Source: Octopus vulgaris (taxonomy: Eukaryota). From it: a stretch of 64,000 nt of DNA. This document shows positions 11,215-63,800 of this stretch, piece by piece. Where the stretch lies: NCBI GenBank assembly GCA_951406725.2, contig OX597814.1:29326001-29390000 (forward strand), in the 5' to 3' direction. Within the stretch, counting starts at the first letter, position 1, and the number at the start of each line of letters is the position of its first letter. The translations under genes were made by a program, and so were the position numbers. The notes beneath the pieces are model-generated. The model was not told the origin of the DNA and searched no databases. It saw nothing but the letters and a program-made list of their open reading frames with translations.

Positions 11215-11249
11215 GTCTTACGTTTCGAGCGGAGCTCTTCGTCAGAAAC
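11215..11249 (-). ncRNA. Minimal type I hammerhead ribozyme motif
   Basis: GTTT CTGACGA A GAGC TCC GCTC GAAA CG TA AGAC; stem I GTTT/AGAC, stem III palindrome ACGT. Confidence 0.7.
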
Positions 11250-11429
11250 ATAGGAAAAGGAAAGATCCAGAGAAGGGAAGACGGAGGAAAACAAATCGCC
11301 AACGGTACACACGCGGTCACATTTTGAATGTATATATATATATATATATATTCAAAATGTGACCGCGTGTGTACCGTTGGCGATTTTTTCCCCTCTGTCT
11401 TCCCTTCTCTGGATCTTTCCTTTTCCTAT

Positions 11430-11464
11430 GTTTCTGACGAAGAGCTCCGTTCGAAACGTAAGAC
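11430..11464 (+). ncRNA. Minimal type I hammerhead ribozyme motif
   Basis: GTTT CTGACGA A GAGC TCC GTTC GAAA CG TA AGAC. Confidence 0.7.
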
Positions 11465-11937
11465 CCTCCTTCTTCCCTTCCTTCCTGAGCGTTCAATAAT
11501 ACTATATTTGTTCCATGTCCTCGCGTATATATATATATATATGAGAGGTATTGGTATCCAAAAGACCCGAGATGGCAGGTAAGTCTTTGTGAGTGCTACG
11601 AGAGGACCGTAGTTAGACTCTCGGTCCGATTATAATTCCCACCACAAGGTCCCTTTGAATGAACAGCGCGTGGAATTTGTGTCTCCACACTATCCACTCG
11701 TAATAACAAAATATGATCTCCTATTGGAATTTACATACCATGGACAAGAAGCATTTCTACCCATTCTACACAGCACTTTCCTTGGATAATGGAATTGTAA
11801 CTGTAACATCCCGCATGTAATTTCACTTTATTTTTATTCTTATTCTCTTATTTGCCTTTATACTTCCTATATCCATCCTTTTCCCAAATAACTCCTTATA
11901 TTGAACTCTATTTCCCTCTAGTTAATTCTTTCGTATC

Positions 11938-11985
11938 GTCTCTGATGAAGGGATATTACTATTATCCCAGAAACAGCTGTAAGAC
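11938..11985 (+). ncRNA. Type I hammerhead ribozyme motif
   Basis: GTCT CTGATGA A GGGATA-ttactat-TATCCC A GAAA CAGCTG TA AGAC; stems I and II perfect, stem III palindrome ACAGCTGT, GUA site. Confidence 0.85.
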
Positions 11986-12874
11986 TACCTTTCTCATTAT
12001 AAGCGTCCTATATATTCCATACAGCCTTGATTTTGTTATCTCATTTTATTTAATACACACACACACATACACACACACACACACACACACACACACACAC
12101 ACACACACACACACACACACACACACACACACACACATATATATATATATATATATATATATATATATATATATATATTTAAATTTCCACATATACATAC
12201 ACAACCATACAGATATACATATGTACACACATGCACCACATATATGCATATGTTTTGCTAGTAAAGACTGGAAATTCTTTCACCAGGGAATAATGTATCT
12301 GCCCACAAGATAGCAGAAAATACTGGAACGAAACGGTAATTATATCATTGATAGAATAAATCGTTTTGTGCTTAAAAATTGCGTCTTACTTTCGCTTTAA
12401 AAAAAAACTGAACAGACTTTTGGGCCTAGCAAATATATATTGAGATAGCTAGATAGATAGATAGATAGATAGATAGATAGATAGATAGATAGATAGATAG
12501 ATAGATAGATAGATAGATAGATAGATAGATAGATAGATAGATATACAAATAAACACATATATAAATATAACTATCTCTGCTATGAATATCAGTATGCAAA
12601 TGTATGTCAAATACTACATTAAAAACTGAATGTTTCTTTAAACCATTGAGGGATGCCTGCAGGAAGAAGTGAGTTCTGAATTTTGATTAATAAAATATCT
12701 TTGCAAATATTTATACACAACACAGTGTGTATTAGAAGCCTAATTTTTCTTATAACATTCGCTCAGAAGCTTAACAGATGTGAAGAAACTGTTAAATTCT
12801 TTTCCTACATCTGCTTAAAGTTTCACACTAAAAGTTTTTTTTTTAAATGTAATTTACTTTAAATTCCTTTTAGG

Positions 12875-59432: not shown

Positions 59433-62355
59433 TCTGTGTGTGTGTGTCTTCGTGTCTATGTTTGTCTCCCACCACCGCTTGACAACCAGTGTTGGTGTGT
59501 TTACGTCCCAGTAACTTATCATCAGCATCATTATCATCTCTTTTATTATTGTCGTCGTTGTTGTTGTTGTTGTTGTTGGTGGTGGTGGTGGTGGTGGTGG
59601 TAGTGGTGGTGGTGGTGGTGGTGGTAGTGGTGATGGTGGTGGTAGTGGTAGTGGTGATGGTAGTGGTGGTGGTGGTAGGGTAGTGGTGGTGGTGGTGGTG
59701 GTGGTGGTGGTGGTAGGTGGTAGCTGTGGTAATGGAACTTTAAACCCAAAAATAAGATAATTTTCACTGACTTTTCTCTTGATTTAGCTAGTATTTTCCT
59801 GCTATCATCATAATGAGCACCTTTAGTATTGTTGTTGTTAGTATTAGCAGTAGAAATACTATTTAACAAAAACACAACAAATGGAAATTAAAAGAAAAAA
59901 ATAACAAACGAAAAATTCGTAGCTAGTTCCTCATGAGTCAATTCGTCATCATTACAATTTTGCGCCTTTGACGTTGATATTGTTCGCTTTTCGTGGCGCC
60001 AGTGGTGAAAAGCCACTTGGAATAGCCACGAGCGTACGGAACAATGACGAAAACAAACAAAATAAAGTATGCATATACAACAACAAAAAAACGTGCGATC
60101 GCAAAATGTGTGTGTGTGTGTGTTTGTGTACATATATAGCTCCATATAGAATTAGTGTGCTAGGCCACTGGTAGTGAAATTCTCTAAAAATTCGCTTCCT
60201 TATATTTTACGTAATATAGCAAGTAATATGGCAGAAACATATAATTACTATTAAAAAAGAAGGCCTTGAGAAATACACTTACAAAACCGTGTTGTTTTTA
60301 TATGCATTCTTGAACGGCTGCTGCTGCTGCAGCACGTCTGGACTCCTAGACTGCTTCCTCGCTCTATCTATGTGATTACAGAGGCCTCTCCTCCTTGGAT
60401 TCAGCTGGTCTCGTGTCTCCTACACTTAGGCTTTTTCTGATTCATTCATCTCTTCTTTACTCATTGCTAACCTTGTGTCCTCCCAACCTCATCTCCCTAG
60501 AGCACAGTTCCTCGTGGTTTCTCTGTAATCGTCGACTTACAACTGTTCAACCAGACCAGTCTGGTTGAATCTGTAAAGATCACGGGTATAACCTCTTTCT
60601 CTAAACCAAACCAGTGAAAAAGATATTTAGAACAGTTATGGATTTGGTGGACTATCGATTCTGTACAATTTTGCGAGAGAGGTGTTTTACAAAAGCATTT
60701 TTCTTGTATGTTATAGTACAACTAACTCAAACCACACTGTTTCATACAGCAACGTTACTATTCATCTTACCAAACGAGACAAAACGTTTCAAGGCAAAAA
60801 AAAAGAAAAAATCAGATACCAATTCCTTATACACGAAGCGTCCCAGGGTCTGAATCATAATGGATACAAAGGGGTGATCGTTAAGTCAAAGTTGAATTCA
60901 AAAATTCTTTAAAACAAATGTTTAATTCATCGTGTCGGTTCGGGGAAGTATATAGTACAATATCTTATTGTGAAAATGGTTTCCTGATAACAATTGAATT
61001 TATTAGAAAAGTACAAAATATTCACGTCAGAAACATTGAAACATTGATTATTAACTTTTGGTTCATAAACAAAGATTTGGGGGGGGGGGGGTTGTGATTT
61101 CACCAAAAACAAAAAAACATTTTAATTGAAAATTTCATTTTTGTGTACTTTTAATCATGGTTCTATGTATGTATGTATGTATGTATGTATGTATGTATGT
61201 ATTTATGTATGTATGTATGTATGTATGTATGTATGTATGTGTGTATGTATGTATGTATGTATGTATGTGTATTTGTGTGCGTGTATATATGTATGTAGGC
61301 AGGCAGGTAAGTAGGTAGATAGGTAGGTATGCATGTATGTGCGTATGTACATATATGCATGTATGTGTGTGTATGTGCGTGCGTGTGTGTGCGCATGTAT
61401 GCATGTATGTGTGTGGCGCGTGTGTACAAAGACACTCAATGCTGCCCGGGTGCCGAATATAGCAAGTTCTTTTTATCTTGTTTTTAGTTTTGGGTGTTCT
61501 TTTCTGTTGAACTAAAAAAATCTTGGCTTACAGCAAATTATTTATATTGACTCGTTCTGCAAATAATTATATTTGCATATATTTTCTCATTATAATTTCT
61601 CTGGGCTACATGTTTGTATTAAATATATACACGGTCAACTACAAGTAAATTTACTAAAGTACATTGGTCTTGCCTTAAATCACTGATCGCATGATTGTGA
61701 CGCGGGCCGCATTGGGTGGCACAAATAGAGGAGCTTGATGACCATAAATTGTTGCTATGTCATTAATGTATCTTTTGTTTTTTTATTTGTTTCAGTCTTT
61801 TGACTGTGGCCATGCTGGAGCCTTGAAGGGTTTAGTCGAACAAATCAACGTCAGTTCTTATTTTTTTAGAATCTGATACTTGTTTCATCAATCTCTTTTG
61901 CCAGACCGCTAAGTTAGATGGCTGTAAACAAAACAAAACTGGTTGTCTAGCGATTTTTGTTTGCGGGGAGAGCAAACACACACACATATGTATGTGTGTA
62001 TTTATATATATATACATATATATACATATATATACATATATATACATATATATACATATACATATATATACATATACATATATATACATATACATATATA
62101 TACATATACATATATATACATATACATATATATACATATACATATATATACATATATATATACATATATATATATATACATATATATATATATACATATA
62201 TATATATATATACATTTAGCAATTAAGGACAACTACTCAATAAGGAAAACTTAACAAGAAATTGTCAGGTAGATAGCGTAAGAACCTCATAAGAGAAAAA
62301 ATTTCGAAAATAATTATTTCTTATTGAACATATTAATTTATATATAGAGGGCATT

Positions 62356-63124
62356 ACATATATATATACATACATATATATATACATATATATATACATA
62401 TATATATATATATATACATATATATATACATATATATATATACATATATATATACATATATATATATATATATATATATATATATATATATATATATATA
62501 TATATATATATATATATATATATATATATATATATATATATATATATATATATATATATATATATATACATATATATATACATATATATATATATATATA
62601 TATATATATATATATATATATATATATATATATATATATATATACATATATATATATACATATATACACATATATATATATATATATATATACATATATA
62701 CATATATATATATAATATATATATATATATATATATATATATATATATATATATATATATATATATATATATATATATATATATATATATATATACACAT
62801 ATATATATACATATATACATATATATATATATACACATATATATATACATATATACATATATATATACATATATATATACATATATATATACATATATAT
62901 ATATACATATATATATACATATATATATATACATATATATATATACATATATATATACATATATATATATACATATATATATATACATATATATATATAC
63001 ATATACATATATACATATACATATATATATACATATATATATATACATATATATATATACATATATATATATATATATATATATATATATATATATATAT
63101 ATATATATATATATATATATATAT
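62356..63124. repeat. ~770-bp (TA)n-rich tract
   Basis: Direct reading. Confidence 0.95.
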
Positions 63125-63192
63125 AACCGCACGCGTATTTATCGTTATGGTAAAATCTGGCGTGTGATTGAGTGGATTTCATCCAGATAGTC

Positions 63193-63268
63193 TTGGCTGA
63201 AGAGCTACAAATGGATTATTGTAAGTAATTTTACATTTAATTCATTAATAGCGAAACAATTGTCCCAA
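63193..63268 (+). ncRNA. Type I hammerhead ribozyme (unit 1)
   Basis: TTGG CTGAAGA GCTA[aatggatta-tgtaa...ttaca-taattcatt]TAGC GAAA CAATTG TC CCAA; predicted cut after 63264. Confidence 0.9.
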
Positions 63269-63724
63269 AATAATCTGTATTTTGTTATTTTTTATTTGCC
63301 CTGTCCGTGTGAGCTAACAGTCGTACTGGCTTTCATGGGAAACATGTATTTTCGTGGTTGAAACCTTTTGGATTAACTGGTGCTAGAGTGATCAATATAG
63401 TGACCACTCTCTTATATTTATTTTGTGAAAATATTATAATATGTTATAAAATATTATAATAATCCAGGTTTCTCGTAGCACTAGGCCACTTGGTGTGGAA
63501 TAAATATACTATTAAATTAGTATCTAATTCTCTCACCCTTATTAATTAATTATAATTATGCTGCATTTATTTCTAAATGCTGTATTTGTTTTCCGTGTGA
63601 GTTTGGCGCGCTGTTGGTTGGGGCATTTGAATTATAACGTCCGATGTAATCAATTGAACCGCACGCGTATTTATCGTTATGGTAAAATCTGGCGTGTGAT
63701 TGAGTGGATTTCATCCAGATAGTC

Positions 63725-63800
63725 TTGGCTGAAGAGCTACAAATGGATTATTGTAAGTAATATTACATTTAATTCATTAATAGCGAAACAATTGTCCCAA
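63725..63800 (+). ncRNA. Type I hammerhead ribozyme (unit 2)
   Basis: Same motif 532 bp downstream; predicted cut after 63796. Confidence 0.9.

Follow-up and report, generated by a model that had tools for sequence, protein, structure and literature searches.

Why should many hammerhead ribozymes (HHRs) of different families, crowded into a single stretch of genome, share a palindromic helix III? The question is raised by 64,000 nt of the Octopus vulgaris genome (contig OX597814.1, positions 29,326,001 to 29,390,000; hereafter the window, with coordinates counted from its first letter), in which an earlier reading of the sequence, the original prediction, had reported such motifs. Our analysis indicates that they are type I hammerheads, very probably the truncated 3' ends (pseudo-long terminal repeats) of about a dozen families of Penelope-like elements (PLEs) plus one retrozyme, which are predicted to cleave mainly as same-family double hammerheads once two copies share a transcript. 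That Penelope hammerheads carry a palindromic helix III and are predicted to cleave in pairs is already published (PMC4209133, PMC3088659).

The window holds more hammerhead motifs than chance provides

The analysed DNA is AT-rich, with about one quarter of it (15,125 of 64,000 nt) masked as simple repeats, and it also contains repeats resembling short interspersed elements (SINEs) and broken retroelements. We searched it with a strict type I descriptor that required a Watson-Crick 3-8 core, helix I of at least 4 bp and helix II of at least 2 bp, allowed optional extra nucleotides and did not require a palindrome. This returned 14 type I hammerheads, all inside 11219-63796, with helix I of 4-8 bp and helix II of 2-6 bp at its base; helix III was palindromic (at most one mismatch) in 12 of them. 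The shuffle control that the original prediction had named as a check was run on the window (200 shuffles, dinucleotides kept, 200-nt blocks) and gave a mean of 2.3 matches (maximum 8) and 0.135 palindromic matches (maximum 2). A palindrome was present in 27 of the 457 shuffled matches, and none of the 200 shuffles reached 14 matches or 12 palindromic ones. Descriptors with an unpaired 3-8 core (12 combinations) found five matches in the window, none of them palindromic. While a shuffled window does offer about two loose matches, and motifs G and H listed below are weak, these counts and the repeated family copies leave next to no probability that the whole set consists of chance matches in AT-rich, microsatellite-rich DNA. 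Chance origin is already refuted for the set as a whole; H, G and K are less secure when taken singly.

Together with the motif at 13061, which the strict rule missed because helix II has U.U at its base, and five decayed copies recognized by eye or in looser scans, the strict matches make up 20 candidates, in agreement with the nearly 20 first reported. A paired 3-8 core is found in 15 of these (13 C3-G8, one G3-C8 and one A3-U8), the remaining five being decayed. The density is one per 2.6 kb for all candidates or one per 3.5 kb for those with a paired core, close to the proposed one per 3-4 kb. The candidates and associated features are as follows.

11219..11245 (-), family A minimal HHR (C3 to N17), helix III ACGT, core intact; inverted partner of 11434
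11434..11460 (+), family A minimal HHR, ACGT, core intact
11942..11981 (+), HHR D, helix III ACAGCTGT; helix II of 6 bp, A.A-flanked
13061..13136 (+), HHR E, ACGATCGT; helix I of 6 bp; helix II long, U.U at its base; (TA)n follows after 36 nt
19767..19794 (+), family A, flanks divergent; position 6 of the core decayed
20558..20921 (+), broken 3' end of a GIY-YIG endonuclease, Hydra-clade-like Penelope, with a stop and a frame change
21128..21179 (+), HHR F, ACCATTGGT; helix I of 8 bp
28910..28937 (+), family A with divergent flanks, U4C core, helix I broken
29217..29251 (-), HHR G, AATCGGTT, self-pairing with G.U; helix II weak
29524..29562 (-), HHR-like motif H, core intact, 12-nt helix III imperfect; the least certain
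31558..32150 (+), family C solo copy between microsatellites; HHR 31932-32001, ACAATTGT
38558..38775 (-), family I repeat copy, containing HHR I
38651..38687 (-), HHR I, G3-C8; extra nucleotide after A9, G10.1-C11.1, helix II of 5 bp, AATATT, U17, helix I of 7 bp
41379..41448 (-), HHR J, ACATATGT; helix II long; (TA)n follows after 40 nt
42227..42251 (-), HHR-like motif K, A3-U8; helix I of 6 bp, helix II of 2 bp, ACCGGT, C17; a single copy seen
42743..42769 (-), family A, U4C core
44909..44944 (-), HHR B, ACGT; helices I and II not related to those of family A
49648..49674 (-), family A, U4C core
58341..58443 (-), HHR L, decayed: G8A, helix I of 2 bp, very long helix II, ACAATTGT as in family C
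59330..59356 (-), family A minimal HHR, core intact
63126..64000 (+), family C tandem array of 532-nt units, retrozyme-like; HHRs 63197-63264 and 63729-63796

The families had been described as unrelated. This was not confirmed: seven of the 20 candidates belong to family A and three to family C, and about 12 families remain. The helix III strings could be located (ACGT eight times, ACAATTGT four times, and ACAGCTGT, ACGATCGT, ACATATGT, ACCATTGGT and ACCGGT), and the string first read as AAATATTT is AATATT plus U17 at 38651. AACGTT fell away, as the sole GAA-AACGTT site (24849) lacks a surrounding hammerhead. It is one of several sites with GAA and a palindrome (7146, 22605, 24849, 40149, 49730, 52871, 56595 and 60790) that were left uncounted because a matching core or helix I is absent.

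At the Rfam gathering threshold none of the 20 candidates had a match, which is to be expected because these are minimal variants without loops, and which lowers only their standing as canonical Rfam members. An Rfam scan ranked by E-value gave no hammerhead among the best 150 of 427 matches, where microsatellite-microRNA matches dominate.

The seven family A copies have a common ACGT hammerhead, and five of the seven also have common flanks; the inverted pair occupies 11113-11526. Three of the seven (28910, 42743 and 49648) share the U4C core change. The change may mark a subfamily and not decay, and weak activity has been reported for a U4C core (PMC3088659).

The motifs resemble the 3' ends of Penelope-like elements

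The architecture of the motifs fits the consensus 'CUGANGAH G..C GAAAN Palind NU H' given for PLE hammerheads (Fig S3 of PMC4209133). The PLE hallmarks (palindromic helix III, extra nucleotide after A9, and G10.1-C11.1) are complete in A, B and I, while the extra nucleotide is absent in C, F and K and the base of helix II is mismatched in D, E, J and L. PLE repeats have been described as carrying minimal HHRs with a palindromic helix III, weak dimer cleavage and a U3-A8 variant (PMC4209133), and a palindromic helix III with a dimer model (Fig S8 legend) and a natural U3-A8 also appear in PMC3088659. The window shares with the metazoan PLE motifs of PMC4209133 the type I fold, these hallmarks, a short helix I, many divergent families per genome, mostly present as solo copies, with predicted dimers, and opposite-strand pairs 100-700 bp apart. 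It differs in density, one per 3-4 kb being far above the 2,000-9,000 per genome given there.

A direct link to a PLE coding region comes from the endonuclease remnant at 20558-20921 (+), which lies about 200 nt upstream of HHR F. A phmmer search with this remnant found 157 relatives at E<=0.001 (best E 8e-12); a longer homologous-protein search and the Atlas returned none. By tblastn it matches full-length relatives of 722 and 723 amino acids with reverse transcriptase (RT) and endonuclease domains. Both carry YRDD, DKT, CxCx5C, YIG and CxH, and one of the two RWK, all among the marks given for Hydra-clade PLEs (PMC8557442). Several features of the window match this clade (for example Hydra-1_oBim) as described there: the C-terminal GIY-YIG and CxCx5C linker in the relatives of the remnant, (TA)n insertion, near-palindromic helix III of 9-10 nt, inverted truncated copies with tail, and the U.U at the base of helix II, typical of Hydra HHRs and present in E and L. 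Helix III of HHR F is one letter off that of Hydra-1_oBim (File S2 of PMC8557442). Unlike the elements of PMC8557442, the window has 3' remnants only. A (TA)5 lies at most 200 nt downstream of 10 of the 20 motifs (five of those in family A), vs 11.5% of random positions.

Several observations count against a PLE origin for the set, or against a role for cleavage. Only one of the 20 motifs, F, is tied to a remnant of a PLE open reading frame (ORF), and no such remnant was found for the other 11 families by Pfam (149 of 382 frame fragments, which gave non-PLE retroelement traces only) or by tblastn with 150 Hydra-like proteins. Three more broken Hydra-clade-like endonuclease ends, 4962-5451 (-), 5651-5872 (-) and 8231-8425 (+), have no intact HHR behind them. 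In Anolis, the PLE hammerhead depended on the protein of the element and was dispensable for insertion in vitro, and none of the RNA-seq reads had its end at the cut site (PMC11167929).

Two side observations may be added here. At 4788 (-) there is a CUGANGA core with a short hairpin, where the GAAA half is absent before an (ATT)n run. A region of about 190 nt upstream of HHR E (12880-13075) contains a long inverted repeat that extends over helix I and into the first part of helix II, and a rod-like fold is likely.

A palindromic helix III suits pairing of identical copies

By the established geometry of a type I double hammerhead, each core acts on the cleavage site of its partner (Fig 1A legend of PMC4209133, with the strand assignment reasoned by us). 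Helix III and both helices I would thus form between copies, and the palindrome would be what helix III structurally demands when both partners are identical. The original prediction had given dimeric cleavage of minimal HHRs as established and had proposed tandem transcripts as a favourable setting. Cleavage of this kind in tandem transcripts is on record (PMC4209133; PMC6765202, with reference to Lunse 2017), and family C agrees with it. It had also called helix III loop-less, which is true of the 4-nt ACGT form only: ACGT can form helix III solely as a dimer, while the longer forms can close with a loop, the 6-nt form through 1 bp and a 4-nt loop and the 8-9-nt forms through 2-3 bp and a loop. 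For the 6-, 8- and 9-nt forms the helix III energy is +0.4 to +6 kcal/mol in the monomer vs -4 to -15 kcal/mol in the dimer.

It is conceivable, although on balance improbable, that motifs with 8-9-nt helix III (C, D, E, F and J) cleave as monomers, as canonical metazoan type I hammerheads for which dimers are optional. The 2-3 bp closure would permit this, the axolotl HHR_Amex2 with 2 bp and a tetraloop shows 22% monomer cleavage, and cleavage is efficient in the retrozyme HHRs of coral and mussel (PMC7229834). Yet helix III in these motifs is at +0.4 to +2.4 kcal/mol in the monomer vs -10 to -15 kcal/mol in the dimer, and a monomer would have no need of perfect self-complementarity in its loop.

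Among same-strand neighbour pairs within 2 kb, one of 10, the family C tandem, is fully compatible. Solo copies would thus mostly lack a compatible neighbour and are likely inert relics. Two different HHR-like motifs on one strand at 29217-29562 (-) are 307 nt apart with a short direct repeat between them, and their helices are not cross-compatible.

Helix I and helix III jointly separate the families

The original prediction went on to suggest that the palindrome acts as a family-specific pairing code. A selected code that prevents cross-cleavage between co-resident families would account for the 10 distinct helix III strings seen across 12 families, and homodimers are the most stable pairs, occupying all of the top 11 rows in energy, above the heterodimers; this last point is also an argument against our main reading. 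We nonetheless regard such a code as highly unlikely, since palindromes are reused across unrelated families and helix I separates families better. One palindrome per family, with hetero-pairs excluded by helix III, is not what the window shows: families A and B both use ACGT, and C and L both use ACAATTGT. Reuse extends to published sets, with ACGU in 29 of 56 motifs, including family pairs within one genome (counted from the supplement text, Fig S3 of PMC4209133), and ACTTTAAGT in five of 14 Hydra magnipapillata families (File S2 of PMC8557442), where Penelope-2_HM and -5_HM are alike in both helix I and helix III. Helix III also has few free letters, starting with A(C) and ending with (G)U throughout because A15.1-U16.1 is a core requirement.

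Most of the discrimination is instead carried by helix I. Of 166 cross-family copy pairs, helix III matched (equal length, at most one mismatch) in 18, both helices I in two, and helix III with both helices I in none. With one representative for each of the 12 families (66 hetero pairs), helix III reached -5 kcal/mol in 10 and both helices I matched in one, A x D, in which helix III is bulged at about 0 kcal/mol. Helix I accounts for 39-82% of the homodimer swap energy in 11 of the 12 families, H being the outlier. This modelling predicts selectivity for family in trans, arising from helix I and helix III jointly and not from the palindrome alone. Partner choice would depend on physical linkage together with the combined match of helices I and III, as a by-product of family divergence. 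A literature search on heterodimers and double hammerheads gave unrelated matches only.

The copies at 11434 (family A) and 11942 (HHR D), both on the plus strand and 508 nt apart, have compatible helix I strands and different palindromes, and so present a natural hetero-dimer case.

Family C resembles a non-LTR retrozyme

Family C is the only same-strand tandem pair in the window. Its units at 63126-63657 and from 63658 to the window end are 99.7% identical, with their HHRs 532 nt apart, and the solo copy (593 nt) corresponds to one 532-nt unit plus a 60-nt terminal repeat in another starting phase. The unit has a fold z of -6.5, none of four frames tested had a Pfam match, and the sequence is present in sequencing runs of five organisms (A-E), none of them recorded as RNA runs, a result that speaks neither for nor against expression. 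Family C thus has what marks a retrozyme, a tandem of non-coding units in which every unit holds a full type I HHR, and it appears to fit a non-LTR retrozyme whose template was circular or tandem. It shares with described non-LTR retrozymes (PMC7229834; bioRxiv 10.64898/2026.07.22.740005) the lack of coding capacity, low GC content, a high degree of structure and a tandem layout with a single type I HHR in each unit; it differs from those of coral, mussel and axolotl in its 532-nt unit (vs 220-390 nt) and in its long helix II. Family C, and perhaps also monomers with 8-9-nt helix III, would be the likely releaser of unit-length, circularizable RNA.

Two motifs carry swapped core pairs

HHR I has G3 and C8 with every other hallmark present, and K has A3 and U8. 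A swapped-core match of the quality of I occurred in 1 of 1500 shuffled windows, and one that equals K in 5 of 1500. These compensatory changes resemble the natural U3-A8 covariants (PMC3088659; Schistosoma Cercyon) and the engineered C3G/G8C, which partly rescues a PLE HHR (PMC11167929). In contrast to both, family I would represent a natural transversion swap fixed in a very high-copy genomic family. G3-C8 and A3-U8 are absent from the 56 motifs aligned in PMC4209133, where the variants are U3 only, and the cores in File S2 of PMC8557442 are all CUGANGA. Among the literature matches listed there were only engineered cases of either core, and Lunse et al. 2017 may already list G3-C8. A search on Penelope-like hammerheads in octopus yielded a single paper. 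At the sequence level, the natural G3-C8 core of this very high-copy family adds a modest new variant.

Variation in family I was assessed with contigs from four of 24 listed runs (organisms A, B, D and E) on 38480-38850, where 13,170, 7,738, 50 and 2 contig pieces were placed, respectively. In the largest run, depth reached 3.4 million on the element vs 21-275 on the left flank, a figure that is depth and not copy number. G3/C8 is the majority state in all four organisms, and none of the 18 variants at >=5% falls in the core, extra nucleotide, GAAA, palindrome or N17. Loop II varies freely, and helix I shows one change (13-44% in three runs) that yields U.G. In two deep runs helix II carries CpG-type changes at 4-6%, three of which yield G.U and one of which breaks a pair. 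The interval 38716-38775 is the family I 3' tail, usually followed by (TA)n but here inverted and 5' of the HHR (from opposite-strand joints and loose ends); the inverted tail with (TA)n is like a PLE arrangement in Fig 2 of PMC8557442. The motif was not found in metagenome contigs. Neither swapped motif has a Watson-Crick 3-17 pair, since U17 accompanies G3 and C17 accompanies A3 (two cases only), and such a pair would trap the core, as suggested in PMC3884650.

It is quite possible, though we would stop short of calling it probable, that family I is an active natural G3-C8 hammerhead in a highly abundant repeat with K as its A3-U8 counterpart, such that PLE hammerheads use all four Watson-Crick 3-8 pairs and N17 avoids a 3-17 mispair. 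For family I itself, our main reading is that it likely keeps an active core via the compensatory C3G/G8C swap, at a reduced rate. Evidence to the contrary is that a G>A at 38676 (about 6%) disrupts a helix II pair, that two-sided compensatory change was not found in the family I contigs, and that conservation may reflect a young family rather than selection. The missing covariation would also suit chance look-alikes or dead relics, as would the partial nature of the rescue by the engineered swap and, for K, its occurrence as one copy, its 2-bp helix II and a quality equalled in 5 of 1500 shuffles. We consider that explanation unlikely, given the fit of the other family I hallmarks, the PLE-like inverted-tail element, the rarity of equal shuffled matches (1 of 1500), the G3/C8 majority in four organisms and the avoidance of a Watson-Crick 3-17 pair by both motifs.

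Other repeats in the window

The segments 2162-3389 (-) and 47490-48857 (-) hold broken non-LTR retroelements in which Pfam finds traces of zf-RVT and RT, and by their appearance we take them to be of the restriction-like-endonuclease type. The segment 40432-41202 (+), without a Pfam match, is presumably the 3' end of a CR1/L2-like RT ORF, again by appearance. Copies of a very abundant SINE-like family, which frequently form partial tandems, occur at 3924-4227, 15761-15932, 19015-19254, 26361-26585, 27717-27967, 32705-33523, 37878-38303, 45547-45949, 52659-52884 and 56391-56604. A 400-nt repeat pair (24324-24726 and 53758-54162, 85% identical) has an internal 101-nt tandem, and a 219-nt direct repeat (45257-45475 and 46150-46368, 98%) stands on either side of a SINE-like tandem.

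Implications

The window provides a panel for comparing homo- and hetero-dimers in a way that separates helix I from helix III. If the reading of family I as an active G3-C8 hammerhead is true, standard CUGANGA descriptors overlook whole high-copy ribozyme families and censuses undercount them. If family I cleaves, it would put the 3-8 tertiary pair to a natural test and supply an abundant family in which to ask about PLE cutting in vivo.

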